64,000 nucleotides of DNA from the IMG/VR virus record IMGVR_UViG_3300017963_000217, positions 35,387 to 99,386 of that record; one strand, written 5' to 3'. Positions 22,720-53,579 of the stretch are shown here, piece after piece. The position numbers and the translations under genes were made by a program. Source of the stretch: a virus. The notes below the pieces were generated by a model. It saw only the letters and a list, made by a program, of their open reading frames with translations. It was not told where the DNA came from and did not search any database. Position 1 is the first letter of the stretch. Each line of letters opens with the position of its first letter.

Positions 22720-24327
22720 ATGGGAAAAAAATATACTATAGGATATATAGAGGAAAATTTTAATAAAGAAGGTTATAAATTATTAACTAGTGAATACAAT
22801 GGGTGCAAACAAAAGCTAGATTTTATATGTCCTAATGGCCATAGACATAATATAAGTTTTGATAAATGGTTAAAAGGCCAAAGATGTTATTACTGTAATG
22901 GTAATGTGAGATTGAGTAACACAGAAGTAAAAAGAGAATTTGAAGAAAATGGATATATATTATTATCTCAATATAAAAACAGCGGCACTAAATTGAAATA
23001 TAAATGCCCTCAAGGCCATATAGGTGAGATGAAGTGGGATCATTTTAGGGACGGTCATAGATGTCCAGAATGTTCGGGGAATAAACCTATTAGTAGAGAA
23101 AAGATATCCGCTAGATTTAGCTCAATGGGTTATAAATTTTTAGATAAGATAAATAACAACGGTATTAGACGATTGTCTTATGTTTGCGATAAAGGTCATT
23201 ATGGAGAAACCACATGGTATAACTTTAACAAAGGTATAAGATGTAATGAATGCGCGGGCAAAGCAAAAAAGACGGTGGATTTTTTACGAAATGAATTTAA
23301 CACAGAGGGATACGCACTTGTAACAGAAAATTATGAAAACTGTCACCAAAAATTACATTTAGTATGCCCTAATGGTCATAATTATTATGTATCATGGGAT
23401 AATTGGAATAATAAAAACTCTCGTTGTACGAAATGTAGTGAATGGGGCAGATCTAATCAAGAAACTGAGTTATTCGAGTTTTTGAATGGTATATGTGACA
23501 AAATAATTAGAAATGATAGATCATTAATAAGCCCTTATGAGATTGATTTTGTAATACCTGAAAAGAATGTTGCTATAGAATATTGCGGCTTATACTGGCA
23601 TTCTGAATTAGCTGGTAGAAATAGGAATTATCATATAGATAAATTAGATAAATGTCAATCCAAGGGTTATAGACTTATAACTATTTTTGAGGATGAATTT
23701 GTAAATCGTAAAGAAATTGTTTTTTCAAGGCTCAAAACTATTCTTGGTTTAAATAGTAATAAGATATTTGCTAGAGATTGTTTAGTAAAAGAGATATCTA
23801 CTAATGAGGCATCCGAGTTTTGTAATAAACATCATTTACAAGGATATCACGGTTCATCAATTAAAATAGGTGCTTTTTATAAAAATAAATTAGTATCAGT
23901 AATGACTTTTTCTAAACCATCTATAGCTAAAGGTAGTAAATATAAAGAAGATTTTATTTGGGAACTGTCTAGGTTTTGTTCCATCCAAGACTATATTATA
24001 ATTGGTATAGCTTCAAAGTTATTAAAATTTTTTGAAAGAAATTACAAATGGAATGAGATATTTTCATATGCAGATAGAAGATGGTCTGATGGTAATTTAT
24101 ATATAAAAATGGGATTTGAATATTCTAGTATTACTACTCCTAACTATTGGTATTTGAGTAAACAATCAAGAATTCATAGATTTGCTTTGCGTAAAACAAA
24201 AGAGGATCCTAAGGATCAAACAGAATGGCAAATAAGAAAATATGATGGTTGGAATAGAATATGGGATTGTGGGAATTTGAAATATAAAAAAATTAATGCC
24301 TCATATTTAAGCAACTATGTTGCTTAG
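22720..24327 (+). CDS. Hef-like free-standing endonuclease: Zn-ribbon repeats, PD-(D/E)XK-like domain, GNAT/Mom-like C-terminus
   Basis: Four CxxGH..RCxxC repeats; EIDF..AIEYCGLYWH..IFEDE; WELSRFC..GIASKLL..SYADRRW..GNLY..WDCG. Confidence 0.75.
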   Translation: MGKKYTIGYIEENFNKEGYKLLTSEYNGCKQKLDFICPNGHRHNISFDKWLKGQRCYYCNGNVRLSNTEVKREFEENGYILLSQYKNSGTKLKYKCPQGHIGEMKWDHFRDGHRCPECSGNKPISREKISARFSSMGYKFLDKINNNGIRRLSYVCDKGHYGETTWYNFNKGIRCNECAGKAKKTVDFLRNEFNTEGYALVTENYENCHQKLHLVCPNGHNYYVSWDNWNNKNSRCTKCSEWGRSNQETELFEFLNGICDKIIRNDRSLISPYEIDFVIPEKNVAIEYCGLYWHSELAGRNRNYHIDKLDKCQSKGYRLITIFEDEFVNRKEIVFSRLKTILGLNSNKIFARDCLVKEISTNEASEFCNKHHLQGYHGSSIKIGAFYKNKLVSVMTFSKPSIAKGSKYKEDFIWELSRFCSIQDYIIIGIASKLLKFFERNYKWNEIFSYADRRWSDGNLYIKMGFEYSSITTPNYWYLSKQSRIHRFALRKTKEDPKDQTEWQIRKYDGWNRIWDCGNLKYKKINASYLSNYVA

Positions 24328-24441: not shown

Positions 24442-27132
24442 ATGGCAAGAAACAGGATCATTTATGGTTCTCAATCAGTATGGTGTAATGGTGAAATCCT
24501 ATATAGAGTGCAGACACTGGGCAGTACCACAACTTTTACGTCTGAGGACATATTTGAACTAGGTCATTTAGATATAGTAGACGTTGTGGACGACGTAAGA
24601 TAGTTGCGTCCTTGTTGGGTAACCAACATGTAAAACTTCATGATATGCTGGAAACTCCCACTAAGTTTTTACTACTAACCGATATCGGAGTAATAATGTA
24701 AAAAATAGGGACAATCAGCAGGGGAGATTTTATAATGAGAAAAAAAATGCCTTATAGTAAGGATGAATTACAAAAGTTGTATATGGAAGAGGGATCTATA
24801 GGTAAAGTAGCATCAAAATTATCTAAACCTTATAGTACTGTTAGATATTGGTATGAAAAAAATGATATCAAAGTACAACCTTCATGCATGACTATCTACC
24901 AAGAATTAAGAGAAACCCCCATGTCACAATTTCAAAAATCTATAGTTTTGGGTTCGGTTCTTGGTGATGGGAATTTGAAATTAGCCCCCCATAGTAAAAA
25001 TGCTAGACTAAGAATTGGTCATTGTAAAAAGCAAATAGGTTATTTAAAATGGAAATACGATATGCTACAACCCTTTTCTAGAAAATTTGGTTTAGATCAG
25101 CCTGCCAAAGAAAAAATTTATAAAGGGAAAAAGTTTAAGTCGACTGATTTTTACAGATTTCATACGGTAGTTCATCCAGATATTACTTATTATTATAGAA
25201 AATATTATAATAAGGGTAACAAAATAGTTCACAGAGACGTTATAGATGAACTTGATTTAATATCACTTGCTATATGGTTTGGTGATGATGGATCTTCATA
25301 CAGAGATAAAAGAACTGATGCTGTTATGTGCTCATTTGCTACTAATTCATTTAGTTATAAGGAACAAGTAGTGCTAGTAAAGGCTTTAAGAAGGTTCTTT
25401 GGTGGTACCATAAAAATAGATGAGCAAGGTAATAAAGGCAGATCAGATTTACTTTTAAGAATGTATAAGACCGTTTATGTAAAAGACTTTTTGTACAATA
25501 TTAAATCAATTTTACCAAAATGTATTCATTATAAAATCGCCCTCAGAGACTAGGTATGAAGCTCCTATTTTATTATAGGATGAAGGTATAGTCCGAACTT
25601 ACAGGAAACTGTAAGAGGGAATGCCGAAGAGCTTCCCCGCCTAACAGGTAAAGCTGAGGTCATTATAAGTAACAGATTGACCTGCTGTCGCAGTTACACT
25701 TAACACTAACGATTGGGGCGATGTAAAAACCATGGCCGTATTAGCACAAGTTCCAGCAGCTAAACTTGCAATGGACGCTAACGCTACTAATAGTAATGCT
25801 AACTTAGCTACTGTTGACTCAAGTCTTACAGAGTTGGGTTATTACCATCATGGTGCATGTTTAGCTGACTTTGCGGTTACTTGTGGTAACTTAACTGGTG
25901 TTACTTTATGGGCTCCAGTTCAGTCAGAATGTGATCTTGGTACACTAGCTAATAATATAGACCAGACTATGGTAATGGACGAAGTCTACGTAAATAGTCT
26001 TGAATTTGGCTATACTACTGGTGCAAATGCTACTGAGAACTACGGTGCTGAGACTGACCAAAAGCTATGGTTGCTGAATGATGGTAGATTTGTTAACTAC
26101 GAAGAACTAGATTATGATAGTGGTGATTTTACCACTTCTGGTACTTTAGCTTCTGGTGTTACTATAGCCACATTTAGTGATGGAAGTTTGGGATTCTTAA
26201 GAACCGATGTTGATGGCGCTAGGGCAGTTACCTATTTTGATGCAAGTGCGAACAATGGGCTTGGTGAACAAGTTAATTGGGCAGTTGTTTCTGGTACTGC
26301 TGCTGCTACTAGTACATTTGTGTATGATGAATCTACTGATACCTTGTATCTACCTACTGTTGGTATAGCTCCAGCGGCCGGCGACAAGATATTTGCTGTA
26401 TACTCAGCAGACGGTTATGTAACTGCTATGGGTAATAAATATTTTGAAATTCTAGATGTTACTGAGCGCCCAGATACTATTGGCGCTTTGAGACAGGGTC
26501 AGGTAGAGATTTATATTGTATCTGATACTGACGCATCATATGAGAATGCATGGAGATTGACTGCGGTTACTATTACTTCTGACCTTACGCGTGAAGCTTT
26601 GGCTGAACTTGGTCATTTGGGTCCATATGATAGGCCGTTGACAGTTCCAATACCAATTACAGTTACCATAGACACCACTGCTGGTGACTTGGAACATTGG
26701 TCAAGATTTGCTGATAGGTATTCCGAGTTTGCTAATGATACTATGATAGATATAGATCTAGCAGATTTATTCTCATCGGAAGATCTTAAGTTAGTGGTTA
26801 AGGTATTTGCTCAGACCGACGAAGAAGCTGGTGGAACAGGTTCTAATAGAACTATTGCTGTCGGTTCAGATCTTATTGGTCAGGATTATTTTTGGTCAGA
26901 TTCTGCGGCAAGTTCTGTAAAGGGAACCATTGCTGCTGGTCAAACTGAAAGAGCACTTAAGACTATCGTTGTTGAACATCTTAAGATTACGGATGAGGCT
27001 TACACATTGGATCTTGGAACAAACGCTACTCAGACATTTGGGTTTCGTTCAACCAATGATCTCTATGTTGTTAAGGGAGACCTTGATATAGATCATATTA
27101 CTGGTGGTAATAAGATTAGGCGTAATGCTTAA
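24442..27132 (+). CDS. Major tail (tube) protein, spliced: join(24442..24596,25680..27132), 535 aa
   Basis: Exon 1 MARNRIIYGSQ..ELGHLDIVDVVDD (SD GGAGG, absent from the ORF track) joins V-PAVAVTLNTNDWGDVKTM in frame with ORF 25732; lies before chaperones and tape measure. Confidence 0.8.
24597..25679 (+). ncRNA. Group I self-splicing intron in the tail protein gene (1083 nt)
   Basis: P1: exon GACGU pairs with GCGUC 24606-24610. P ATGCTGGAAA, Q AATCAGCAGG, R TCAGAGACTA, S AAGGTATAGTC. Ends AAGTAACAGATTG like the capsid intron. Confidence 0.93.
24735..25553 (+). CDS. Intron-encoded LAGLIDADG_2-type homing endonuclease with N-terminal HTH
   Basis: VLGSVLGDG and LAIWFGDDG motifs; ATNSFS. Confidence 0.9.
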   Translation: MRKKMPYSKDELQKLYMEEGSIGKVASKLSKPYSTVRYWYEKNDIKVQPSCMTIYQELRETPMSQFQKSIVLGSVLGDGNLKLAPHSKNARLRIGHCKKQIGYLKWKYDMLQPFSRKFGLDQPAKEKIYKGKKFKSTDFYRFHTVVHPDITYYYRKYYNKGNKIVHRDVIDELDLISLAIWFGDDGSSYRDKRTDAVMCSFATNSFSYKEQVVLVKALRRFFGGTIKIDEQGNKGRSDLLLRMYKTVYVKDFLYNIKSILPKCIHYKIALRD

Positions 27133-27140
27133 TTAGATTG

Positions 27141-27180
27141 AAGGCGTATGGGTGAGGGAACTATCCCTCACCTATACCTT
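27141..27180 (+). terminator. Stem-loop after the tail tube gene
   Basis: 14-bp stem GTATGGGTGAGGGA / TCCCTCACCTATAC, loop ACTA; no U-tract. Confidence 0.6.
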
Positions 27181-27202
27181 AATTATGGGAAGGAGAAATA
27201 AG

Positions 27203-27472
27203 ATGGTTGAAAAGGTTGATAAACATAAGGAAAAGTTAATGCGAGATGTTAACGAGGAAGTTACTATATTGTTTGAAAAAACATTAGATTATGCCGAAGT
27301 GGCTGTACCTAATGTAGAACAATACAAAAGGCTTAGATCAAAAATACTAAGAGTTGGTAATAATTGTATACGCAATATTAATAAAATTATAGCTGCTCGT
27401 TATTTAGTAAAATTTGATCCGCCAACTGAAACTATTATTGAAACCAAATTAGGTAATACGGCAAAGGACTAA
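27203..27472 (+). CDS. Hypothetical protein
   Basis: ATG 27203 follows SD AAGGAG; the ORF-track start lies inside the hairpin. Confidence 0.6.
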   Translation: MVEKVDKHKEKLMRDVNEEVTILFEKTLDYAEVAVPNVEQYKRLRSKILRVGNNCIRNINKIIAARYLVKFDPPTETIIETKLGNTAKD

Positions 27473-27488
27473 TATAGGAGGATGTAAA

Positions 27489-28253
27489 ATGGAAGAAAAA
27501 GAAAAGGCTATTGTAGAGAACAGAAGGAAATTTGAGGACCCCACTACATCAAAGACTTATTATATTGCTACACCAACAGCTGAAGATGTAAGGGGTGCAG
27601 ATTGGCAATATAGCAAGATGTATACAAAATCTCTTAAAGAAGGTATTGTAACATCTGCTGAAATGGTGGACGTACTTAAATTACGCGGAGTTATAGGACC
27701 TGAATTTGAAAGACGTCAGAAGGAATTAACCGATGAGCTAGCTAAGAAAGTTGAAGAATTGAGATCATCAATAGACATGGATGATAAGCAGAGGCTGGCA
27801 TTAGAAGTTAGTTCTTTAAGGCAGGAGTTATATGAGTGGAATTATAGGCTTAATGGTCCAATGTCTAATACATGTGAGCAGATAGCCGATGATTCTAGGT
27901 TGGAATATTTAACATCAAGAATGGTTCAACGAGATGATGGTGAAAGACTGTGGGAAGAGTACTCTGATTTTTTGAAGGAAAGTAACCAAGCTTTATCTAT
28001 GAGAGCTAGGTTTGAAGTTATGCTCTATTTACAGGGACTAGATTCTGATTTTCTTGAGAAAACTCCTGAGGCTACAGCTATTAGAGAGATAGAACAGGAT
28101 ATACAAAATAAAGCTAGTGAAGCATTGGCTAAATTAGAAGCATCTGTGGCCGAGGACTCAGAGGAAGAGGAATCTGATACTACCGAAGAAAAAAAATCCA
28201 GATCTAAAAGAAAAAGTAGAACAAGAAAAACTACAAGTAAAAAATCGGAGTAA
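27489..28253 (+). CDS. Putative tail assembly chaperone
   Basis: Helical protein between tube and tape measure; similar in layout to the next gene (Y..S..EG, T.E..A..S.L.YL). Confidence 0.6.
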   Translation: MEEKEKAIVENRRKFEDPTTSKTYYIATPTAEDVRGADWQYSKMYTKSLKEGIVTSAEMVDVLKLRGVIGPEFERRQKELTDELAKKVEELRSSIDMDDKQRLALEVSSLRQELYEWNYRLNGPMSNTCEQIADDSRLEYLTSRMVQRDDGERLWEEYSDFLKESNQALSMRARFEVMLYLQGLDSDFLEKTPEATAIREIEQDIQNKASEALAKLEASVAEDSEEEESDTTEEKKSRSKRKSRTRKTTSKKSE

Positions 28254-28255
28254 TT

Positions 28256-29311
28256 ATGACATTACCGATTGGAGAACTAGAAAAATACATAGAGCAAATT
28301 TGTACTGGAATTAAAATAGTTGATATTGATAATTATACCATATTATTCAAGCCGGCTACAAATTTTGTTCTTATGAAAGCTAGACGCCTTTATGATATGG
28401 AGTATAAAAGATCTATAGATGAAGGATTGTTACCTATAGACGAAATGAAAACTATACTTGAAGAGCGTAATTTTATAAGGGCTGAGGATAGAAATAAATT
28501 ATCTAAACTTCAATCACAATTAGAAGCTCAAAAAATATTGCTGGCAAAAACACTAAAAGTTAAAGCTAATCAAGACCGTATAAAAGATGTAATACATAAA
28601 CTGGAAGAAGAGATAAGTCAAATAGAATCAGTGGAAAGGTCCAAGTTTTCTATGACCGCAGAGACTAGAGCTGAGGAATCTAAGTTATTATATCTTTGTT
28701 ATAAGTGCACGTATGATATAGATACAGATAAGTTATATTGGCCTACTTATAAGGATTTTTCCAACGAGTCTAGATTGACATTCAGACAAAAAGTTTTGTC
28801 AGAATTTATATTATTTTACAGTGGTATACCAACTACTAAGATAAGAGCTATAGCTAGAAGTAATTTGTGGAGAATACGATATTTGACAAGTCTGAAGACG
28901 TCGGAACCTCTGTTTGGGGTTCCGACATCTGAGTATACCAACGATATGTTAAATCTTGCATATTGGTCTCACTATTATCAGAATATTTATGAGATGATGC
29001 CCGATGACCAGCCATCGGATTTGATTATAGATGATGATGAGGCGTTAGATGCGTATATGCAAGATTATTATGAGGAAAAAAATAGAGAGGCTGCTGGAAG
29101 GAGAGATACACGAAAGAGGAGAGGTAAGCTACAAGCATTTAATTCTCAAGAAGTTATTGTTACTAGATCCAATGAATTATACGAAGATATTACTTATGAT
29201 ACACCTAGAGAATCACAAGCTATAAAGGACAGGAATTTAATAAGAAAAAAGAGTAGAGTTACAAAAGGTAATAGAGTTGGAACTATACCTGATAAACTAC
29301 CTACCAAATAA
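28256..29311 (+). CDS. Putative tail assembly chaperone / pre-tape-measure protein
   Basis: Directly precedes tape measure; YQNIYEM..PSDLIIDDDEALD motif. Confidence 0.6.
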   Translation: MTLPIGELEKYIEQICTGIKIVDIDNYTILFKPATNFVLMKARRLYDMEYKRSIDEGLLPIDEMKTILEERNFIRAEDRNKLSKLQSQLEAQKILLAKTLKVKANQDRIKDVIHKLEEEISQIESVERSKFSMTAETRAEESKLLYLCYKCTYDIDTDKLYWPTYKDFSNESRLTFRQKVLSEFILFYSGIPTTKIRAIARSNLWRIRYLTSLKTSEPLFGVPTSEYTNDMLNLAYWSHYYQNIYEMMPDDQPSDLIIDDDEALDAYMQDYYEEKNREAAGRRDTRKRRGKLQAFNSQEVIVTRSNELYEDITYDTPRESQAIKDRNLIRKKSRVTKGNRVGTIPDKLPTK

Positions 29312-29383: not shown

Positions 29384-32300
29384 TTGCCTGCCCCTACCGA
29401 AACATTTCGCATTGAAATACTGGAAGATATTAAAAAGTCAGCTACTGACCAAGAAACCAAGCAGCTCGCTGCTAATATGGTTAAATTGACCCGCGCTGTT
29501 GAAAGGCTTGAAAAGTCACTGGTTAGAACTGCGCCCACTCATCGTGCTGGAGATCCTTCCTTTGAACAAATAAGACGTGATATAAAAAAGATCGAACTGC
29601 GGGAAGATGCTGTTAAGAAATTAGAAATAGCAGTTAAGCAGTTGGAAAGACGTATGGGTGAACTGCCTAATACTATTAGGACAGTTGTAGGTGGTAGTAG
29701 GGGTGTACTTAGACGAGAAGAAGAGAGGCGCGTTGCTGGAAGGCCTGTGGGAGGACTACCTGAGAACAGAGAATTAGTAAGGCAGTTAAAATCATTAGCG
29801 GATGCTCTTAATAGAGTCGAAAAGTCAGCAACTTTTGCAGGCGGCAGAGAACAAACTAGGAAAGATATAGAAGCTATAGCTAAATCTCTAACGGCTAGAG
29901 ATAAATCTGCCTCAGAATTAAGCAAAGCTATTGATAATTTAAGTAAGAAAATAGAGGTTGTTGCTCCTACTAAGAATGTACCAGCTCCTACTTTAAGGGA
30001 ACTAAGTGATGTAAAGCTATTAGGACGGGATTTAAAAGAAATAGGTGCTGATTTCAAGAATATAAAAAATCAGTTAAAAGATAAAATAGTAGTATCATTT
30101 GATATAGAGACTTCTGAAATTAAGAAAGATCCTCAGGGAAAGAAAATAGTTGATGCTATAACTCAAATAGCGTATCAAAAAGGCACACTAGAACAAATAT
30201 TAAAAGGACAGGCTGAAGTAAAACAAATACTTATTAAGCCCCCTAAGGGAACCAGGACTGAGGAATCTTTCAAAAAATTAATAGGCAAAGCTGCAGAAGT
30301 TAATAAAGCTGAATTAAAAACTTTACTTGCTGAAGGTAAAGAAGCTGATGAAGCTTTGAAAGAATTTGCTAATGCACTTAAAGGCGCTTCAGCTGTTGTT
30401 GGTCAAAATATAGGCGATTTTGATATTGGAATACTTGAAGATCATTTTAAGAAGACAGGAACTAAATTAGACGCTGTAGATAGTGAGTTAGAAGGATTTG
30501 TGGACACACTTAGACTAGCTCGTAAGGCATTTCCACAGAGAGCTATTTTAGGACCACAAGCTCAAATTAAAAAACCTTTTGGATTAGAACAATTTGCTAA
30601 AGACTTTGAACTAGCAGGATCATCAGCTGAAGATTTAGGCGAAGAGATGCACGATGCTAGAGGTGACGTAAAGAAAGTAAGATTGTTGTTACGGGCTTTG
30701 GATGGTTCTACGGAAGAGATGAAAGCTGCTGAAGAATTCTTTTCTGCTAGACTTGATCGTATATCAAAAAGACTAGAGATATTAACTAAAGATTATGAAA
30801 GATTAAGTCAGAAAACACAGCAAGCCATTAGTGACCTAGATAAGTTTAGGTCGCAGTCTTCTGATGCTTCTGATGAACTAAAGAAGGTTAAGAAAGCGGC
30901 TGAGCGTACAGTTTTAGAACTAGCTGATCCAGCTAAAATTAGATCATCTATACAAGCAGCTACATTTAGGCCACAGGTAATACACCCTAGAGCTGGCGGA
31001 GGCCCTACACCAATAATTGGTGGGGAAGGTGTACCAGGCCTTGAAACTATGGCTGCTAAAGTAGGAGATCTAGCAACTTCGTTAGATAAGCTACAGAGTA
31101 ATATTATTTCTTCTCTAGAGAAAGGTATGTCTAGGGGGATGGAGATTATAAGAAATGAAGCTGGAGAGGCATTTAGACTTGCTCCTGGTGGTAGAGAGTT
31201 TGAAATAAAAATAGCCAACGTGAGAGATTTGACACGATCTCTTACTCAGGAGTACGGAGAGTTTGTTAGACCAGGAACTAGTGCTTCGCAATTAGTTGAG
31301 CAATTTATTAGAGCTTTTACTAGGTCGTCATTAAGTACCGCTAGATCTCCAGAATCCATGGCTGAAGAAATTATTAAAGAACTAGCACCAATGACAGAGG
31401 AATCTGTGTCTATAATGGGCAGGGAGATACAAGAACTTTTTGGTAGGATCAGACGAGAAGAGATAGGAGTAGCCGAAGTAGCTGGTAGAGCTGATCTGGG
31501 CGAGATATTTAAAAATATTGTAGTGGAAAATAGAGCTCAGCGAAAATTAAACGAGGATTTTATAAAAAGAATAGCTATACCAGCCGTTCGTATAGGCGCT
31601 GGTGGTCTTGGGCTCGAGACAAAACTTGGTGCAGAGAAAGCTATATCAAACTTTGCGACTATAACTACTGGACTAGAAAAATTTGTGAATGAGCTAAAAT
31701 CTCTTGGTGCTCCGGCTATAGAAATAGAAAAATTTGCTGCAAGGGTTGGTGAATTACCATTAGCATTTAAGCGCGCCGGTAGTTTGGCCAGGCCTGGTGG
31801 ACCTGAGGAATCTAAAGCACAAAAGGTTGCTCAAGACTTAATAAACAGAATGATAGAGCTAGGTGGTAGGCAGTTAGTTGGTAGAGGTTATCAAAGAGCT
31901 ATAGCATTGAGGACATTTGAACGTAGAGCGCCTGTGATAGGAAAAGAGCGAGCTACAGAAGAAGCATCTGCCATCGTCCAGAAATCTGGAGAGAGTGTCG
32001 AAACTTTATCACAACAAGCTAAAGATTTGGGAATTACTGCGCTGGATGTAGCAAAGGCTCTAGATACTATAGAATTTGAAAATATTTTTGATATTATAGA
32101 TAGATTATTTCAGGCTGGCAAAGTTCCTTTTTTACAAAGAAAAGCTGGTGGCCTGGGTAGATTTGACGATCAAACTTTGAGAGATATATCCAGCATAGTC
32201 AATTCTGTTACTGGATTATTACCTCTGATAGAGCCTGGACGCCCTAGACGTAGAGCACAACAGGAATCAGTGGTTAGAGTTTTGACTAAGCCCACTACTA

Positions 32301-35300
32301 GAGCTAGGCCTCAAGAACAAGAAAGAAGGATATTAGAAGTAAATTTACTGTGGCGTGATTTAGCTGATCAGGCAGCTAGACTTGGGGAAAATTTAATTGA
32401 GGGTAGAAAAGATCTAGAAGGCGTTATAGGAGAAACATTGAACCTAAGTGATTCTGCTGGCGCAGCTTTTAAAGAACTTAGTGGTCATTTAGGAGAGCTT
32501 AATAAATCACTTATTAGTGTAAGCACGGGAGCTATTCGTGGATTGGCTCCTTTTGAACAGTTCACACCATTAGAAAGACAGGTATCACAATCGCAAGCTG
32601 GAATAGCTGGTGGAATAGGTAGAGCTGGTTTAAGGACGCCATCATTGTTAAGTGCCAGAGAAGAGGCTCTTATCAGATCTGGAGCAGCTGGAAGTCGTGG
32701 TACTGGTTTAGATGTATTAACCGAAATAAGAGATACAGCGGAGACGTTCGAAGATCAGATAGTTATATCCGGTAGATTGGCTAAATCATTTAATAAGATA
32801 GTAGAGCGATTAATAGCTCCAGCTAAAAGAATAGCAGAAGGTGGAGAGATAACCGAGATACAGCCTGGGATAAAACAGATAACTGGCAGAGGCAAAGGAT
32901 TTTTAAAAGCTACTGAGGATTTTGAGTCTGCTTTAGAAGATGTTACTTCTGAATTTCAAAAGATATTTGGTGTTCCAAAAACTATAGAAAGCAGAGCAGA
33001 TGTAGCAAAAATAGGCGACGAAATAATACGTGTTTTAAGAGAACATAGAGGTAAAGAGGTAGAAGTACAAACTGCCAAATTATCAGAGATTTTCTTGAAC
33101 ACATTTGGTAGAAAAATAGCAACTAGGTTTGGTACAAAGGGTGTTGCTATAACACCAGGAGTAGTACCTACAGCTACGAAAGAGGTGCAAAAGGCCTTAG
33201 AGGAAGTCAGAAAGACTATAGTAGGTGGTGCTAAGGCAAAAGTAGTTCCTGGTGCAGGTCTTGGGTATGCTAAAGTGCCTAGGACTGCTGGTGAACTATT
33301 AGCTGATATAATAGGTGAGGAAGCCCCAAAACTTTCTAAGGCTGGCGAATCCATATTTAGTGACAAAGTACTGGAATTTTTACAGGAAAGTTTGGTAAAG
33401 TCTGGTAATAAATTTGTACAGGAATTATTTACTGACGCTAGTAAAGGATTGGTTACTAAAGAGGAAGCCAAAAAGCAAAAAGCCATATTTGACGCTGCTA
33501 CTAAGTTTATAGAGGAAGCTTTTAGAGTTAAATTACCAACTGGAGCAGCTGGTATAAAAGAAATACAGGACATTTTTACTGGATTATTTCCTAAGGAAAG
33601 TTTATTTGAGTTTCAACCTATAGAAGCTAGGATAAGCGCTCGTGGTGTTGCACGTCGTGGTTTACAGTCAGAGGTGCTGGAAGGTATAATTAACAACTTA
33701 ATAGGAACTACTACTGATATAACAACTTTGATAGATCAAGTAGGCAAAAACGCTCTTACAGAGACCGAAGAAGGTAGGAAGCGTATAAATGAAACATTAC
33801 AAGCTCTTGGATTTGAGGCTTATGAAAATATAGATGAGGTATTGAAGAAATTAAAACTAGAATCTCCTGATTTTGATCCATCTAAAATTCTGGAACTAGC
33901 AAACGTATATACTACTGTTATAGATGAATTTGGAAATAAGTTACAAAGTTTTGTATCACCAAAATTTTTACAAACAGTAGAGATTCCAGCTAAAGCACTG
34001 GGAGATCCCATAAAGGACTTAAAACTGGATTTTCAATCATTTGCTGCTTTTGCGGGAATTTTTGGAGAGAACTCCGAACTATTAAAAGAGCTTGCTAAAT
34101 CTTCAACATTTGCATCTAAAGAAGCTTTTGAATTAATTAAAGCTTTTCAATTATTAGATCCAACCGTGGCTAATTTAAAAGATGCGGTATTAGCCGGATT
34201 ACCTAAATTTTCTTTAGAAGAAATAAGAAAATTTTCTGGTGCAACCGGAACATTAGAAGATTTTAAAGACACCATTTTTGACATAGCTAAATTTCCTACC
34301 GCTTTTAAACTACAAATTCCAAGTATGAAGCCAGGTAAGTTAGGTTTTGAAGAATTTTTTGTACCTGGTCCTGCCGCAAGGGGTACATTCGAAGAACCAC
34401 TCATTGGTGAGCGTTCACCTACTGCATTATCAAGGGCTCTTTCTAACGTAATCAGTGCAGCCAAAGACGTAGAAGAACTGGCAGCAGCTGCAGCACGTGA
34501 AGGGGTGGGCCTTAGCGAAGAGTTTCAAAATAAATTTGCTTCAACCATTCGCGGAGAGCTAACCAAGGAACTAACTGATACTATAAAAAAATTTCAGCAA
34601 TATGAAACCGCTTTGACTCCTGAAAATATTAAAATTATGGAGAGAACGCTTGATAGATATATTAAGGCTTTGTCGGAAACGGAGCCGGTAGCGCCTGTAT
34701 TTGCACGCCCTGGTGGAGAGACGCAAAGAGGGGCTGTAGAAGTATTTAGACAGGAGCTTGTGGGTGATCCTAGACAGTTTAGTCGCGTTCTTAGTAGAAT
34801 ATCAGATATATTAGTAGGTGTAAATCCTGCTTCCATTAAACGTGAATCCGAAGAACTGAGAGCAGCTTTAAAATCATTTGAAGAGAGTGGTGGTGTAATA
34901 CCAGCTGAGTTTAGAACACCAGGCAGATTGGGTATATTAGAGCGCGGCTTTCAAGGTAATTTCCCAGCTATGATAGAAAGTTTTCTTGACCGATTAAAAC
35001 AGGAAGCCGAAGCTAAACCACTTTTTGATATCCAACTAGAAGCTGGTAACTTAGAGGAATTTGCGGATAGTGTGGGAATTAGTCTACAAAGATCTGTAGA
35101 AGAAGCTTTAGAACTCAGAAGACAATCATTAACGAGAGCTAGGGCCTCATATGAAAAAGCTCTTGGTGAAGAAGTTATAGGCAGAAAGAAAGGCATAGAA
35201 CAAGCATTTCTACGCAGAGAAGTTCCAGCTATAAACTTAAAAGCCATTAATGCCGCGGCTGATAAAACTGAGGATTTAAATAAATTAATAGATACACTAT

Positions 35301-38300
35301 CTGGTAAAGATACTAATATACAGATAGACATACCTAATGCGAACAGTATTATTAGTAAACTTAAAGAAATACGCGATGAGCATGAAAAGTTTGTTAAGAA
35401 AGCTAAAGAAATTGGTTTGCCAGTTCTCAAAGAGGGTGAAATAGCTATACCAGAAGCTGCTGCGGCTAAAATAAAGGTGCGGACTGGTGAAGCTGGTGAA
35501 ATAAAGACTACACTTAAAGATCTAATAGAGCAACAAAAACGTGTATTCGTTGAATCTGCTAGATTTCCATTTACTGGCACATTGAGTGTGCAGCCACATG
35601 TTGCTAGATTAATGGGCGAAGCTTTTGGCAAGGAAGTTGGTAGATTAGGTACCAATGTAGCTGCTGTGCCAGGCGCTCCAAGGCTAGATATAGAATCCTT
35701 AACTGGAATTTTAGATGAATTAAGTCAATTTGTTGGTATAAAGCCAGGATTTGGTGTAGACGAATCAGGTGAAAAGCGAGCCTACAGTTTACTAGAACAA
35801 AGAGAGATGGCGTGGTCTGAAGGCACGGCCGCTGGTGCAGAGCGTGCTATGGAGCTAACCAAAACCATAGAATCTTTGATATCAGTTATAAATTCTGCAA
35901 CACCTAAGTTTACAAATCTTGAACAAAAACTGGATTTTGACGGTGACGCTTTAGTTATACATACTGGACAGGTAGAAAAATCAAGACAAGATATAAAGAA
36001 ACATTTTGAATCATTTGGTAAAGATGTAACCTCAGTAAGAAATCTGTTTAGAACTATATTTACAGCCATAGATGAGAGAGATATTAATACCCTTGTGGAG
36101 ATGGGGCAGGCGTTTAGTGAAAAATTTCCTAAAGAAAAAGGATTCGAATTTTTAACACAACCTCAGATTAGGGAGAATATAGAAAATCTTAACTTAAATG
36201 AGGTTGCTGAAGCTCTATTTTCTGGTACAAAGGGATTTGAATCTTTAGAAAAAGGAACAGATGAATATATTAAAGCATTGAATGATTTTACAAAATCTTT
36301 ATTAGAGAAAGAAATATTACCAGAAGTATTTACTAAATTAGGGGTTGTAGAAACAGAAAGAGCAGGCGTAGCAGAACGCATAGGAGGTACAGTCACTGGA
36401 TTATCGGGATTAGGAGCTACTGAATTAGACAGGAGTATATCTAAATTAACTCAGGAAATACTTAGACAACAATTATTTGAAAAAAGATACACAGATGCAA
36501 TAACTGGTCAGTTATTTAAATTACAAACCGGGCCTATTGTTGAAGGTATAAGTCGTTTAGCTAGAATTTCTGAATTAGAAACAGGATTTGGCCGTGGAAT
36601 GGCTGGCACAGGTGGTGGAGGGTTGTTACCACCATCAGCTGCGTTTTTAAAAAGATTTCCAAAGGAAAGCATAGCTTTAGGTGCTATTCCTGAGAAAGGT
36701 GAGTTCGCAGACACGGCTGCTGCTTTTGGTACTCGTATAAATGAGATTTTAAGATTCGTTATTCAGCAAGGATTTGATGTAAAACATCCTGGAGTACAAT
36801 CTGCTGCAAATAAAATAATAGAAAATATTGGTAAAAAAGGTGGAATTGAATCTATTATAGAAGTATTGAATGCTGAGGAGGGCCCTCTTAAGAAATTACA
36901 GAAATTTAATGAGCAAATAGAAAATGAAGTTAGACTTAGATTAGGCAAGCATCCCACTGAAGCACTAAGAGAAGAATTAAAAAGATTTGAGCCTGAACTT
37001 ACAGAAGCGGTAGTTGGTAATTTATCTAGAGAAGAAATTATAAAGCGTGTGATTAAACACGTAGATTTGGCTGCTACTTTTGAGGAATTGGGGAGACAAA
37101 TACAAAGACAGGCTGTCAAGGCTTTAACTATAAAACTTACTGAAGAGGTAGAAGCTCTTCCACCAGGCGCTAAAAAAGCTAGGAAATTGGCTGATATAAG
37201 AGCTGCTGGAGGCGTAGAGAAATTTGCAGCTGAGCAAGTAGCTAGGGAAGCCGCGTCTGAGACAGGTATTAGTTTATTTTCTACTATTACTAGTACATTA
37301 CAACCTATATATAGACTAAGAACTAGTATGGAAAATATAGAAACAGCTGCTAGACGTTCTAGACTTCCATTTCAAGCTCAAGAAGTATCTGTGCCTACAG
37401 GAGAAGCCGGCGAGAAGATAAAAAGAGATCTTCAAACAGCGCAAAAAGCTGCTAATGTTTTAAATAGATCGTTGATTCAAGCAGCGCAAGAACCTACTGG
37501 TGGAGTGCAAAAATTACTAGTGGTTTCTGCTTTGAAAGAACGTTTTAAAGAGTTGGAAGAGTTGGAGAAATTAGGGCGTGAAGCCAAAGCCAGTGTTGGA
37601 TCATTTGAATCTACTTTTGGCGACGTAGTAAAAACTAATGAGATAGCTGTAAAAGTATGGCAAGATGCTCTGAGACAAGTTGGAGCTGGTAGATTAGGTC
37701 CTATTGGTCCTAAAGAAATAGAAGAATCTTTTAATCAGATTAGTATGGCTATAGAAATAGCTAAAGATAAGATGAAAGAGATATCTCAAATTGCAGGTCT
37801 TCCACAGATAAGTCCTGAAGAAAGAGCTTTGACTGGTCTAGAAATCAGAGAATCTAAAAGTAAAGAGATATTCGAGCAATCCAGACAATTAGTAGAAGCA
37901 TTATCTGCTCAAGGAGAACCACTACCTGTTCCTGGTGATTTGGAAGCTAGTGCTCAATTACTACATGACAGACGACTAGAGCTATTAGAGTTTATAGCCA
38001 CGATGTCAGAACAGTTTAGACGTGTGTCAGAAGTTATAAAAACTATACCGGCTCAGAAAGAGTCCTTAAAATTAGTATTCCCTGAATTCGGCGATATAGA
38101 AAGAAAGATTGCTGATACTGGCGACGTTGATAAAGCTCAGTCCGAATTTGTTGAAGAACAGAAGAGCAATATGCAAGTTATTCAAGAATGGTTTAACATG
38201 CAGACTCAAAAAGCTTCTGATCTGAAAGACGCGGTAAAAACAACTCAAATCCCTGAAGAATCTGTTACTACCAGACAACTTGAACAAACTACATCTGAAA

Positions 38301-41300
38301 TATCTGACGCGATTGATAATCATATAAATCAGGCCATTTTAAATAGAAAAAGAGCCGCACTAAAACAACTAGAAAAACTTGCTGCTGGACCAGAGGCAAC
38401 CATAACAGCACCTTTACATGAGATATTTAGAGCTAGTGCTATAAAAGCTGGTGGAAAGTATGGTGGTGGTACCCAGGAAGAGTCTATTTTAAGTAGTATG
38501 TTAGGTTTGGAAGATCCTAATGCCATTTTGGAGGTAACAGGTCTAAGAGGAACATCAATACATAGACAGATACAAAAGGAATTGTTACAGCAATTTCCTA
38601 AAGCCGAAATAGAAAAACCCATAGAAGATTTGGAAAATAGACTGGTTGGGCATCTGGATGTTTTATATGAAAAAGCTGGTAAAAAAGTAGTTGCTGATAT
38701 AAAAACTATTTATAGCCCGAAGCAATTTGATTTCCTCAAACAAATATCTGACGAGATTCAGCATAGAGGAATTACTATACAAGAAAAACTGGATGAGTTA
38801 AAATCCAAAGAAATTACCAGTTATGTAGAGCAGAATGTAATACGCAGGCTGGAAGATTATCTAAGCCAGGTTAATGTATATTTAAAGAATGTGGAGAATT
38901 CTGTTGGAGAAATTATAGTTGTAAGTACTCACGATCCTTTCGATAGATTCACATTACCTATAGGCGAATTTGATCCAGAAAGATTTGATAAAGATCTTGA
39001 AGCTATAGAGAGTGCTAGACTTAAAGTGTTAAAGATATTAACTTCGGTAGAGCTAGGGGTAGGTTTACCAAAAGAAACATTATCTGAATTTCCTAAGATA
39101 TATCAAGAACTGGCAGATAGATTAGCAAAAACTGGACCAAAAGGATTCTTAGAAACTTTACCAACAGTTCCTTTGGGAGAAGTACAGAGATCATCGGAAG
39201 AAATATTAAATAGTCTCGATGAAACACAGGAAAAATTATTTGACCAATTAAGCAAAGAGTATTTAGAATTGTTTGAAGCCCTAGGTGGACCTGGTAGAGC
39301 TGAAAAAACGTTTGGAAAATTATTTTCTGCTGGTGGGGCCGCTTTTGGTGCTGCTGGTGGGGCAGGAGGAGCCACACCACCACCTCCACCACCAGGAGGT
39401 TTTGGTGGGGGGTTTGATGATGATGAGGAATTTAAAAAGAGAATAGAAGCTATACTGGCCAAAATGAGGGAAGGCGTAGAACCTGATGTACCAGAGATAG
39501 TAGATTTAATAAAGGCGTTGGAAGATGAAATTCCTATCAGGATACTAGCTGCTCAGAATAGACGCGATGCTGCTATGGCTAAGGCATTAGAGGAATTGTC
39601 TAAGGCTATATTACAGGCTATAGAAGAATCCGGGTCTACTGTAAAATCGTTTAAGAAAATAGTAAGATTATTTGATCAAATAGATCAAGTTAAAAAACAA
39701 CAACCGTCGCCGCAAGACATAAATAGACTTAGAACCCCAGAAATAGTACGCCAGAGGCCTGATGATCCGCAAAATCTATTCACAAATTTAAAAGCTCTAT
39801 TTGAAACCGCTATAAGAGTCAATAAGTTAGCAGATCCAAGTGAAATAGAAAAATTTGGTCCTGAAATAGCCGAATTAATTGGTCAGGCTGCGGAGAGGGG
39901 TCCTGTTAAAGAAATAACAGATCAAATAGCCGATGCCGTTAATAAGAAAAAAGGCGGTATGGCTATAATATGGCAGTATTATAAAAAAGCTGTAGGTGAT
40001 TACTTTGTAAATAGACTTAACGCTTTATCTGAAGAAATAAATGCAGAATCTGGTACTCCGAGGGGTAGAGCTGCTTTTGCAGAGTTTGAACAAGTATTAG
40101 AAAAATATCTCGCTAATATAAGAGGAACTCTTGGTAGAGCGAGTGATATTTACACACAGCGAGGTCCTACAGGTAGGAAAGATATTTTTGTTGAACCAGA
40201 GCTGGCCAGATTAACCGGTATATACAAGACTCCAGCACAATTAAGAGAACAAGCTAGAACACAATACGGACTACAACCTCAATTTGCTCCTGCATTTGAC
40301 GTGTTAACCAGTGATTTAGCTGATTTGGAAAATATTAGAACGCCTCTCGAAAAGATACAGAGCGTTTTTGATATGTTGACTAAGCTAGATCCAGCTATGA
40401 AAGAAATTTTAGAAGACGCTGATTTATTTAGGCGCATAGGTGACCAAGCCGTTGAAGCGTGGGATTTTGAAACATTACAAAGAGGAGTAACTCAGTTAAG
40501 AGAAGCTCTACAAAGTTATGAAAGATTACAGATAGGCGGCTTTGGCGGCATGGGTGAAGATTTTACAGCAACAGCCAAGGCTAATGTATCTGAAACTATT
40601 AAACTGTTAAAAAGAATGGAAAGAATGTTGGTTACTGGAGGAGCCCAATCATCCCCATTAGGACTTGTAGGGGTACCGACAGAATTAGATCCGCAGACAC
40701 AAGCGCTTCTACATAGAAGAAACATAGCTCAGCTACAGAAATACTTTGAGACTCCTGAAGCTGAAGGCGGACCCGAGAAAGGTGCGGCATTTACTTATAA
40801 ACAACGCATAATTGATCCAGCTAGTAAACAAGTTCTATCTAATATGACGGAAGAATTTAAAAAGATAGGGGAAGCTAGTAATAGAGCTGGTGAACAGGTA
40901 AGTTTGTTTACTCAAAGAACTGAAGATCTCATAGCCTCTTTCCAAGAAAGAAAAGGATTAGGACAAGCATTTGGGCGCGTCCTTAGATGGGGTATTGCTA
41001 GTAGATCTGTTTATGGATTAGTCAGAGCACTACAAAGTATGGTTGATACCATAGTGGATGTTGAATCTGGTATAGCTGTGCTTAGACAGGTTATGAATCC
41101 TCTTACTACAGATTTCCAACAAATTACTGCATCAGCTGTTAGTTTCGCAAAAGAATTTGGTTTACCTATTAGGCAGGTTATAGATTCAATGAGAGTGTTT
41201 GCTCAGCAAGGTTTAGCTCAAGCTGAAGTTGTGGATAGAGCACGTACTTCTGCTTTAGCTGCTAATGTTACAACTCTTAGTGCAGTTGACGCTACGGAAG

Positions 41301-44300
41301 CTATAACCGCTGCTACTAAAGTATATAGACAAGAGGGTGAAAGTACTGTTAGATTTCTAGATTCTTGGACAGAAGTCGAAGCGAGACATGCCATTACCTC
41401 TAATGAGTTAGCCAATGCTTTGAAAAAGGCAGCCGCTGCAGCTAAAACTTCAGGAGTGGAATTCGATGAGTTGAATGCTATTGTGACTGCTATCGGTGAG
41501 ACTACTAGACAGTCTGGTAAAGAGATAGGTACTTCATTGAGATTTATATTCAGGCGTATACAGGCTGAGAAGGGTCCTAAAGAATTAGCGAGTATAGGTA
41601 TACCTGTTGTAGGAGCTGGTGGCGAGTTGAGAAGTACTTTTGATATATTAGGAGATTTATCTGATAAATGGAAAGATTTGACTAATGCCCAGAGACTTAA
41701 TATAGCTACAGCTATAGGTGGTAGAAGGCATTATAACAGTCTAATAGTTCTAATGCAAAATTGGGATAGAGCATTGTCAGCGTTGAACAGTAGCTTGAAT
41801 TCTAAAGGTGCTGCCGAAAGACGTAATTATATAGTTATGCAGACTTATGCTAAGCAGCTTCAGCAGGTTAGAGGAGCATTGGTAGATCTGCAAATTCAGT
41901 TTGGTAAATTTGCTCTACCCGTTGCAAAAGGTTTACTACAAAGTATAAAGTTCTTGTTAGAGACTTTAGCTAATATACCACCAGGTATAAAAATAGCAGC
42001 GCTGGCTTTCTCAGGATTGTTTGTTGCTATTGCTAAAGGAAAAACGTTAATTGATGATATTATAAACAGAGTAATGTCATTCGGCAGCGTCTTATCTGAT
42101 TTTGGTAGTCAATTTAGCAAAGAGTTTAAGATAGGTATATTCGAAGCTTTTGGTAAAATACCTAAAGGCTTGGGAGAAATAGATACTAGAGGATTATCGA
42201 CAATAACAGAGGCTGGTAAAAGTATACAAGATTTTGAATCTGTTATAGGTAAAGCTGCATACGTAGTAGCTCAGTTCGGTAGGAGTTGGAACTCTGTTAT
42301 GTCAGAGATAGCTTTTACTGGAACCGCTACTTCTGAAACCTTAAGCAAAGCTTTTGGCAAACTTGGGGGTGTATTAGGTAAAACAGGTCTAGTTGTAGGA
42401 ACTAAGATACCCGTGTTAGGTCAAATTATACAAGCAGCAGCCACTGGAGCTCAAGCGGGCGAGGGCGCGTTTCTTGAGTTAGGTAAATTATTTGGTATAC
42501 CAGCGGAAGCTTTGGCTAAGTGGAGTAAAGAAAATACTAGCTTTGTTAAGTCCATTGCGCCTTTGGCAGGATCTATATTAGCTTTAATACCTATATCTGG
42601 AAAAGCTTCTGATTCTATAAAGAAACTGGCTTTTTCTGCTACACAATATGAAAAATCTTTGTCTCCTATAAGAAGACAACTGAGTGGCCAGTTGTCTGAA
42701 ATTAACCAATTAGCTAATTCATACGATAATTTACAAAAAGCAATAGATAAGGCTAATATGGCTAGTCAGCCAGAAGCCGTGGCTGAATCTATACGTAGGG
42801 AGGAATTTGTTAGTCCGTTATTAGAAATAGCAAAAGCATCTAAGGGCGCAAAGGAATTTGGTAATAATTTATCTAAGGTTAATCTTTCTATGGTGGATAG
42901 CTTTGATCAGTTCGGTAATGCTATTATAAAACCCACTGCAAATTTGAAGGAATACTTTAGGGTATTAAAAGCCGCGAAAATACAAGAAATAGCGGAAACT
43001 GAAATATCAGCATTGGAAAAATTCTCTGAAGAACTTACTAATGCCGGGACTGTGTCAGCGAAATTTAGATCGGAACTGAAGAAATTTGTCAAAGAAATAC
43101 CCGCAATAGGACCTATATTGTCCAAACAGATCCAAATTTCTCCTGCACAGGAATTAAGAGAAGCGGTGGATGCTGTTAATAAGATATTGGAAAGAGGAGC
43201 TGAATTTCCCATGACTACAGCATTCGATGAGTTATTTCAGAGATATAATAAAGATTTAGAAGAAGCAAGAGAAAGATATAGAGAATTTTTTGCAGATTTC
43301 AAAAGAATATTGTCGGAAATTAGTACTGGTGACTTATCCGTAGCTCAAGTACGTGGACTGTTAGATAGAGAAACTTTGCAGCCCGCATTCGAATTAATGA
43401 CTGAATTTGAAGAGAGGTTAAAAACCTTTGCGGACGCTGGAAAACTTGATTGGGAAGATATTTTAGGAATAGAAATATTAAAGAAATTGAAACCAGAAGT
43501 AACTTTTGATTATGCTGCGCCGCTTACAAAAGATTTATTTAGGCAAGCTGGAATAATACAGAGATCTCAAAAGGCTTTTGCTGGGGATATAGTGTTATTT
43601 AGTGACGAAATAGAAAAACAATTTGATATAGCTGGTGATCAGGGTATATTAAAATATAGAGAGGGATTAGGATTTTTTGTAGAAGGTATAGATAAGGAAC
43701 TAAGAACAGTTAGAGAAATCCCGTTTGATACAGTAAGCCAGTTTGTTGATTCTATTTTTCCAGCTCAGAAGATCTCCGAAGGTGTACAAGAAAATGTAGA
43801 TATTCTGAGAGAGTCTTTGGTAGGTGCGGCGGCTGGTATGATAGGTATCGCTGATAAAGAATTTAGGCGTGAATTTGGATTGGGACCTAGATTTTTTGAA
43901 CAAATACCGACAGAAACTTTGATACAGACCCCTGGAGGATTCGATCTAGGTGGTAGGGCATTTGGCCCTCAGCCATTTAAAGCAGAATTTGCCGGTATAG
44001 AGGGTGGATTTCAAACTATAGTTAGAGATTTCTTTGTGAAGCCGTTGGAGCAGCTCGAGCAGTTAGTAGAGGAACCAAAGAGAAGGCTAGATGCTGGAGT
44101 AGGGTTTATACAAGGCCTTGAGAATGAAATACAGAGATTTGGTACTACTATAAAAAATAACCAAGTGGTGGTTCAATATATAGCTGCTTTTGTAGACTTG
44201 AATAAATCACTAGCCGAGTCCACAAGGTTATTGAATGAAAACATAGCTGTAGAAAGAGCACGTAATGAATATCTTAAAGAAACTGCTGGTTTACTGGCAG

Positions 44301-52547: not shown

Positions 52548-53158
52548 TGGCAACTATATCAGATAGACAAAAAATTAGAGCTAGAGTTATTTTAGGTACG
52601 GAAACTTTTGATGGGTTGATGGTACAAACACCGAATGTGGTATCTTTTAATGTTAGAAGAGCTAGAAATCAACCATCAGCTAATTTTTCCGCGAGTTTGC
52701 GAATAAAAAATACTGAACTAGACGCTATTGGTCTTGGTGTTATAATAGAAACCCGTGTGTTACCAGGAACTTGGACTAGGATATTTACAGGTGTTGTAGA
52801 AAAAGCAGTACTTAATCCCATACGAACTGATGCCTCTATGGTAATGTTGAATATCTCCGGTAGAGATGCTATGAGGATACTAGAAACTCAGAAAATTAAT
52901 AGAAGAGTAAAAACATACAGGGAAGCTGGTATTCCTCCACAGAGATATGCTGTGGTTAATAGTGTAATAAAACATAATACATCCAAGATAGAAAGGTTTA
53001 AGATAAAAATAACAGATCATAGACCTAAGGCTGTTCAAGAATTACCACAGACACCTTTGGAGAATGTTCCAGAAGCATTCAGACTTAGGAAAAATATAGA
53101 TAGGTCTATAGATTCTCCCACAGAAGGTGGTATAGAAACAACCAAAATACAGGAGTAA
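52547..53158 (+). CDS. Putative baseplate hub-like protein
   Basis: VVSFNVRR..FSASL..IFTGVV..ISGRD pattern seen in hub proteins. Confidence 0.5.
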   Translation: MATISDRQKIRARVILGTETFDGLMVQTPNVVSFNVRRARNQPSANFSASLRIKNTELDAIGLGVIIETRVLPGTWTRIFTGVVEKAVLNPIRTDASMVMLNISGRDAMRILETQKINRRVKTYREAGIPPQRYAVVNSVIKHNTSKIERFKIKITDHRPKAVQELPQTPLENVPEAFRLRKNIDRSIDSPTEGGIETTKIQE

Positions 53159-53167
53159 TAGAGTGAT

Positions 53168-53578: not shown

Positions 53579-53579
53579 A

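Follow-up and report, generated by a model that had tools for sequence, protein, structure and literature searches.

Here we describe a 7,006-residue tape measure protein with a predicted single-chain RNA polymerase (RNAP) built into it, encoded in a 64,000-nucleotide stretch of viral DNA (the window; positions 35,387 to 99,386 of IMG/VR record IMGVR_UViG_3300017963_000217). The window covers the 3'-terminal 64 kb of a linear record of 99,386 bp, about 55% complete by CheckV estimate, in which the genes all lie on one (plus) strand. A single uninterrupted open reading frame (ORF) runs along that strand from 29384 to 50404; its predicted start is a TTG codon at 29384, with an AGGAGG Shine-Dalgarno sequence 7 nucleotides upstream, and the residue numbers used here presume this start. 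An earlier note on the window had proposed a single-chain beta-beta'-like RNAP on the basis of nine motifs, and by locating each of them in the translation of this one ORF we found all nine at the residue and nucleotide positions claimed: LAPFEQFTPLER at residue 1054, TFEDQIVIS at residue 1121 (E1123 at nucleotide 32750, E1123/D1124 spanning 32750-32755), the two-lysine motif GRKIATRFGTKGV at residue 1242 (nucleotides 33107-33145, with K1244 at 33113 and K1252 at 33137), PIEARISARG... at residue 1412, FVPGPAARG at residue 1659, a further motif at residue 1680, IGRKKGIEQAFLRREV at residue 1932, ARFP at residue 2059 (R2060) and LDFDGDALVIH at residue 2183 (D2184-D2188 at nucleotides 35933-35947). 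The analysis below supports the polymerase part of that proposal; its embedding in a tape measure protein had not been part of it.

The polymerase module can be followed from near residue 910, where a stretch at 32111-32512 begins to match a family of stand-alone proteins of about 1,050 residues (family A4; hhalign 97.3%, E = 2.1e-11). A beta/Rpb2-like half with the FED and GRKIATRFGTKGV motifs occupies 32513-33994 (residues 1044-1537), as delimited by VIA-align, by hhalign to A4 and by invariant residues. Downstream of it lie a beta'/Rpb1 N-terminal clamp-like connector at 34160-35215 (residues ~1593-1944) with YVPG..R and K.G...F.R..P motifs, and a beta'-type double-psi beta-barrel (DPBB) at 35216-35983 (residues ~1945-2200) with R2060-x-P2062 and D2184-F-D2186-G-D2188, the latter assigned from DPBB fold match, hhalign and invariance. 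A beta'/Rpb1 C-terminal-like part at 35984-37318 (residues ~2201-2645) completes the module; it is defined by a second structural model, by conserved columns and by hhalign of alignment A3 against A4. Conserved within it are K2379/G2383/E2387 and N2453...K-H2468-x-G, which match the stand-alone family too and which we infer, residue by residue, to be candidate bridge-helix and trigger-loop elements.

The ruler follows in the same chain. A Gly/Pro-rich linker at 39326-39418 (about residues 3315-3345, with PPPPPP at residue 3332) parts the enzymatic from the ruler region, and one might speculate that it acts as a hinge or a cleavage site. Beyond it, a TP901-type tape measure core at 40859-42376 is recognised by both Pfam and PHROG: PF10145 matches residues 3920-4113 (nucleotides 41141-41722) with E = 2.4e-25 and 90 bits against a cut-off of 33.2, and the ORF matches 15 tape-measure PHROGs, phrog_4211 (E = 4e-84) and 14 others. 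The RNAP domain and the tape-measure core, with PF10145 and phrog_4211 downstream of the polymerase, therefore lie in one stop-free polypeptide. Two hydrophobic segments within 41975-42601 (residues 4198-4218 and 4386-4406; Kyte-Doolittle 19-residue windows of at least 1.6) are, by their composition, candidate membrane-inserting helices. The eight genes that flank the giant ORF (25732-29311 and 50406-54218) matched no significant Pfam or PHROG family, and because these neighbours lack recognisable families they do not confirm a tail-module context. The tail tube, chaperone and distal-tail proteins expected of this lineage were likewise not recognisable by sequence near the giant ORF.

As the window protein has no Pfam match to an RNAP family of its own, its membership rests on transitive homology through A4. 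The tape-measure family aligns to A4 over 431 columns (hhalign 99.8%, E = 1.2e-28), with FEDQI, the two-lysine motif, the PI..R.S....KR....E.LE block and the YVPG..R block each paired, and the downstream K.HTG...E / KH.G stretch aligns at 75% and E = 2.5e-5 (A3 against A4). The stand-alone proteins in turn reach known RNAP families: all four tested exceed the PF00562 cut-off of 23.4 bits, scoring 28.5-40.4, two of them match PF00623 at 24.6-26.8 bits, near or above its cut-off of 25.3, and they also match jumbo-phage "RNA polymerase beta subunit" PHROGs. A profile check against Rpb2_6 and Rpb1_2, which the earlier note had suggested, thus came out divided, with no hit for the window protein itself and both families reached by its stand-alone homologues. 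Among the tape-measure-fused members, 17 of 34 give weak PF00623 matches below the cut-off (best E = 1.6e-4), and no other Pfam family recurs. Profile alignments to the E. coli subunits fall on motif pairs that the earlier note had drawn (GDKMAGRHGNKGV, NADFDGD and PVLPPDLRP...KGKQGRFRQNLLGKRV), namely at beta 1062-1076 (PGDKMAGRHGNKGVI, E = 0.16), at beta' 456-480 around NADFDGD (hhalign E = 0.005) and, via A4, at beta' 242-359 (E = 0.0065).

It could be argued that such motifs are a chance resemblance within a long, low-complexity helical protein, given that a lone D.DGD is no rarity in a protein of this length (7,006 residues) and that an ESM Atlas feature search, in which recognition was low and which was uninformative, returned only clusters of tape-measure-like helical proteins. 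The strong hhalign match to a family that itself reaches Pfam RNAP cut-offs, together with two independent models that match beta and then beta' in order, already refutes this explanation, and we give it virtually no credence.

Those models were compared with 48,161 PDB chains using VIA-align. The first, generated with AlphaFold2, covers residues 1040-2239 (mean predicted local distance difference test, pLDDT, 74.6; predicted template modelling score, pTM, 0.43), and the second covers residues 1930-2750 (pLDDT 73.2, pTM 0.66). For the first model, ranks 1-9 were all RNAP second-largest subunits (plastid, phiKZ, AR9, RNA polymerase (Pol) I, African swine fever virus, Xanthomonas, Pol IV, Pol III and vaccinia), with Z 12.8-15.4, root-mean-square deviation (rmsd) 3.0-4.2 and 198-226 residues aligned within model residues 5-498; ranks 10-16 were largest subunits (Z 9.5-11.7, model residues 554-1196), except for QDE-1 at rank 13 (Z 10.5). 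The top ten chains for the second model were largest subunits only (Z 10.6-13.1, as many as 303 residues aligned). The matched ranges extend to chain residues 1200-1660, within the C-terminal half that contains the bridge helix and trigger loop. A designed DPBB (7dww_A) matched both models over 86/86 of its residues (Z 9.3-10.0, rmsd 1.7-1.8), at residues 909-1156 of the first. The beta'/Rpb1 matches take in model residues 554-905, and an isolated clamp domain from an archaeal RNAP (3qqc_A) matched the first model at Z 8.8; at these middling Z scores, the N-terminal beta'/Rpb1 alignment and the 3qqc_A match suggest that a clamp has been retained. Foldseek placed Thermus thermophilus and Taq beta chains on the first model at probability 0.75-0.97, and in BFVD the best match was a jumbo-phage protein (E = 9.5e-4), with large-DNA-virus (giant-virus) RNAPs at probability 0.94-0.96.

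Two DPBB-type cores, as a beta-beta'-like enzyme should have, are accordingly present in the predictions. The beta'-type barrel bears DxDGD preceded by RxP, as judged from invariance, the DPBB fold and the beta'/Rpb1 matches at Z 9.5-13.1, and the beta-type barrel bears the two catalytic lysines (GxKxxxRxGxKG) and FED, in a part of the model where pLDDT is 31-70 around these motifs. The RpoB-then-RpoC order of the motifs, pointed out previously, is borne out by the fold matches, by profile homology and by the mapping of motifs to E. coli beta and beta'. Of the structural comparisons that had been proposed, phiKZ appeared among the top nine chains for the first model and crAss-like gp66 was missing from the top 50. 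Predicted fold, homology and motifs together support the assignment of residues ~910-2645 as a single-chain, beta-then-beta' two-barrel RNAP.

The fused form is conserved across a large family. From a word-indexed search we obtained 39 giant homologues, 5,362-7,954 residues long, and an alignment-based scan found 47 IMG/VR loci in which the match always lies within a giant reading frame; a single-sequence pattern scan of IMG/VR gave no match. In two of these loci the polymerase region is interrupted, by two in-frame stops in L037:10001-13900 and by a frameshift in L042:10001-13826, interruptions that might reflect faulty assembly, pseudogenes or recoding. When 1.84 billion representative proteins were searched with the family profile, 151 clusters (50% identity) were recovered. 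Their members include 83 proteins with a length of 4,000 residues or more; 82 of these have DxDGD, 74 have the two-lysine motif and 72 have FED, and the order FED, Lys-Lys, RxP, DxDGD, tape-measure core is constant. More distant tape-measure proteins of 4,400-5,600 residues (P0137, P0142, P0160, P0106 and P0086, the first of which also carries PF10145) show the identical motif order with a FED-to-DFDGD spacing of only ~780-1,000 residues, so that the fusion spans a wider superfamily than the ~7,000-residue clade. Neither the fused module nor the stand-alone RNAP had a tblastn match in 50,697 GenBank phage records, and by this measure the lineage appears to have no cultured member; our literature searches did not find it described.

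In alignment A2, whose 34 relatives share 25-51% identity, the residues that never vary include E1123, D1124, K1244, G1250, K1252, G1253, R2060 and P2062, as well as D2184, D2186, G2187, D2188 and H2193. The three putative Mg-binding aspartates (D2184, D2186 and D2188) and the two beta lysines (K1244 and K1252), which the earlier note had reported as kept, are thus kept throughout this set, and invariance at such divergence puts the motif agreement beyond chance. Dead enzymes usually lose their catalytic residues. A catalytically inactive relic, retained as a plug or spacer of the tape measure, would be in keeping with a window protein that has no direct Pfam match, but all catalytic residues of both barrels are invariant at 25-51% identity and DxDGD persists in all but one of the 83 giant proteins, so that we regard a relic as very improbable.

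Two nuclease domains are also carried by the window protein. A DEDDh (DnaQ-like) 3'-5' exonuclease domain lies ahead of the polymerase at 30086-30673 (residues ~235-430; phrog_403, E = 1e-7, residues 159-386), and PF00929 is precomputed for many homologues; a PD-(D/E)XK (RecB/Cas4-like) nuclease domain lies behind it at 38531-38893 (residues ~3050-3170; phrog_1706, E = 2.4e-6, residues 3054-3119), with an ADIKT motif at residue 3104. A simple motif search detected the exonuclease motifs in ~28 and the PD-(D/E)XK motif in ~27 of the 83 giant relatives, and both are clade-specific accessory domains found in only part of the family. One may speculate that their role is end processing or an attack on host nucleic acids. 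DEDDh exonucleases are typical partners of DNA polymerases, and their presence in the same chain, together with the QDE-1 match at Z 10.5, raises the question of whether the enzyme uses another template or makes another product, as a primase-like enzyme, as an RNA-dependent polymerase like QDE-1, or as a PolD-like DNA polymerase with DEDDh for proofreading or end processing. This we consider improbable: the best structural matches are beta and beta' of DNA-dependent RNAPs, with no PolD DP2 chain among the top 50, the motifs match beta and beta', and the absence of the exonuclease from most of the family places it outside the conserved machine.

The profile search also yielded proteins of ~1,000-1,200 residues with FEDQ and LDFDGD, and in three relatives a stand-alone RNAP of the A4 type is encoded in the same genome as the fused form: G001 (268,764 bp, 100% complete; L053:1501-4668, minus strand), G003 (228 kb, 86%; L054:1501-4650) and G004 (238 kb, 87%; L052:1501-4782), with open frames of 1,088-1,180 residues. 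The paralogue is thus present in three of the four relatives that are at least 86% complete. Ten more records, 16-72% complete, contain the fused RNAP only. These compact stand-alone enzymes are candidate non-virion polymerases. P0130, P0140, P0149 and P0169, at ~1,000-1,200 residues, are further members of this compact single-chain beta-beta' family. In a FastTree phylogeny (unrooted and with long branches) a single branch with Shimodaira-Hasegawa-like support of 100 parts all stand-alone from all fused forms, a topology that would fit, if weakly, a single fusion after a single ancient duplication.

A tape-measure-fused virion RNAP has been published before, in gp96 of Thermus phage P23-45 (Chaban et al., Nat Commun 2024, PMC10770324; PDB 8H2M and 8H2N), with close relatives in P74-26, G20c and TSP4. 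The gp96 polymerase is active, is present in virions within the full-length protein, and transcribes pre-early genes, among them the gene of gp64, a second RNAP that is not a virion component. The gp96 polymerase is flat and lacks a clamp, a shape by which the authors explain its passage through the tail, and in their dendrogram the single-subunit two-barrel RNAPs form a clade apart from the multisubunit type (PMC10770324). Like gp96, the window protein is a giant tape measure polypeptide whose ruler is preceded by a two-barrel RNAP bearing DFDGD, the A4-type protein of its relatives takes the place of gp64 as a stand-alone paralogue, and the role proposed for it would be the same, namely transcription, after injection, of the first genes to enter the cell.

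The differences from gp96 are nevertheless considerable. Whole-protein BLASTP against gp96 gave a best E of 0.23, hhalign against gp96 residues 1-1200 gave E = 0.13 on an irrelevant stretch, the family profile had no meaningful hhalign match to gp64, and a profile search of PDB sequences did not find 8H2M or 8H2N. Folds of the gp96/gp64 type match our models at Z 6.8-9.1, more weakly than multisubunit beta/beta' (Z 10-15). The gp96 polymerase is N-terminal with a minimal active fragment of ~800 residues, whereas the module described here comprises ~1,700 residues, starts near residue 910 and includes a clamp-like region; gp96 carries a metallopeptidase domain where the window protein carries DEDDh and PD-(D/E)XK nucleases and a PF10145 core; and gp96 and gp64 have no Pfam RNAP matches, unlike the stand-alone paralogues of the present lineage. 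Relative to gp96, then, this is a lineage without gp96 sequence similarity, nearer to the multisubunit RNAPs, apparently clamp-keeping and widespread in metagenomes.

Multisubunit enzymes (RpoB/RpoC, Rpb2/Rpb1) and the split RNAPs of phiKZ and AR9 (7OGP, 7S00) provide the best structural matches to both halves and have FED, GxKxxxRxGxKG, RxP and DFDGD in common with the window protein. They differ in that the module here is one chain of ~1,700 residues rather than ~2,700, with most lobes and the beta N-terminal half missing or unrecognisable, in that it sits within a structural tail protein, and in that it falls below Pfam cut-offs. The virion RNAP of coliphage N4 is a protein of 3,500 residues with a T7-like single-subunit fold. 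It is a parallel in being a giant virion protein that is injected with the DNA and transcribes early genes (general knowledge, and mentioned in PMC10770324), but its right-hand fold is not the two-barrel one and it is not a tape measure. Other single-chain two-barrel enzymes are phi14:2 gp66 of the crAss-like phages (6VR4), SPbeta YonO and Neurospora QDE-1; gp66 is moreover a virion enzyme within a very large protein (PMC10770324 and general knowledge), and the QDE-1 matches (Z 10.5 and 7.6) are poorer than those of the multisubunit subunits.

The window's contig carries no gene for an alpha, omega or sigma subunit at Pfam sensitivity, a negative to be read against its ~55% completeness. PF01000 (alpha) had no match across the 99 kb, and PF04542 (sigma) had only a sub-threshold 15-bit match in a 94-residue frame on the minus strand. 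The earlier note had stated for the window that alpha and sigma genes are lacking, and this holds for the whole contig.

We consider it probable that the window protein is a virion-borne, tape-measure-fused RNAP that is injected and transcribes early genes before a free paralogue takes over; this scheme of delivery and transcription is modelled on P23-45 and on what tape measures generally do. As the ruler of the tail, the protein would be packed there and, when a cell is infected, would be driven out before the DNA, and the hydrophobic part of the ruler may help to make a channel through the envelope. Residues ~910-2645, with the beta/Rpb2-like half, the clamp-like connector, the beta'/Rpb1-like barrel and the putative bridge-helix/trigger-loop part in one chain, would then transcribe the first-entering DNA, presumably pre-early genes, without the host polymerase. 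The stand-alone paralogue (~1,050-1,180 residues) would probably succeed the fused enzyme, as gp64 does gp96 in P23-45.

Several results weigh against this interpretation. At the level of sequence, direct Pfam and PHROG scans of the whole giant ORF found no RNAP family, and searches of PDB sequences (phmmer and two profile searches) returned only Rpb1/Rpc1 on the DFDGD stretch, at E = 0.67-1.4, together with coiled-coil noise. At the level of structure, Foldseek gave no match to the PDB at E <= 0.001 for either model, and the first model has pLDDT 31-70 around the FED and two-lysine motifs and a pTM of 0.43. The genomic evidence has gaps as well: G002, 89% complete, has the fused form only, the 99-kb contig of the window contains neither a stand-alone RNAP nor a second long ORF with DxDGD (which says little at ~55% completeness), and an 11-mer search of its intergenic regions found no promoter-like repeat in more than two of them. 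Finally, a folded module of ~1,700 residues that, in the predicted models, seems to keep its clamp, unlike the flat gp96, may be difficult to carry in, or pass through, a tail tube.

This last point bears on the alternative that the polymerase is active but not delivered, either being cleaved off, for example at the Gly/Pro linker, to serve the producing cell, or acting mainly as a DNA-pulling motor or anchor. The Gly/Pro-rich linker does part the enzymatic from the ruler region, a folded, clamp-bearing module of this size would be hard to fit in a tail tube, and the P23-45 authors invoke the flat, clamp-less shape of gp96 for its passage (PMC10770324). On the other hand, the P23-45 polymerase domain occurs in virions within full-length gp96 (PMC10770324), and at least 83 giant proteins retain the fusion, uninterrupted by a stop or a split, which argues for a need to have both functions in one chain; we therefore judge an undelivered enzyme unlikely.

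If the injected polymerase is accepted, its origin may also have been separate from that of P23-45. We put forward only tentatively, as a possibility that falls somewhat short of an even chance, that a clamp-keeping compact beta-beta' RNAP was duplicated in an ancestor of uncultured phages of ~180-270 kb and that one of the two copies became part of a ~7,000-residue tape measure, independently of the Thermus phages. In the clade of the window protein, the addition of the DEDDh and PD-(D/E)XK domains might then have produced an injected multi-enzyme set able both to transcribe DNA as it enters and to cut or trim nucleic acids.

Other genes on the contig are also of interest. Upstream of the window, L049:5876-6871 (genome 23876-24871) encodes a 331-residue protein that matches Pfam Volactin, an archaeal-type actin, with E = 2.3e-71, and adjoins a gene for a 329-residue coiled-coil protein. 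The terminase large subunit (1,432 residues; L049:11978-16276, genome 29978-34276) is split by intein and LAGLIDADG homing-endonuclease domains. Free-standing homing-endonuclease-like genes occur at window positions 5633-6610 (LAGLIDADG), 22720-24327 (HNH, phrog_559) and 24735-25553 (LAGLIDADG), in the part of the structural region that directly precedes the tail genes. An ORF of 1,656 residues at L048:14148-19118 (genome 14148-19118), without a Pfam match at E <= 0.001, encodes the second largest unexplained protein of the contig.

A tail ruler that doubles as an injected RNAP has so far been shown only for four close relatives among the Thermus phages (PMC10770324). The present analysis indicates the same solution in a different and much larger group, with 151 clusters, 47 IMG/VR contigs and some near-complete genomes of 228-269 kb, whose polymerase is far closer to cellular beta/beta' than gp96 is, about twice as large, and seemingly clamp-keeping. 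If this is true, coupling of transcription to the tape measure would be a general strategy of long-tailed phages, and the problem of how a tail can hold a large folded enzyme, and let it through, would stand out more sharply. The fused and free enzymes would also offer a minimal single-chain beta-beta' pair for studying the reduction of the two-barrel core.

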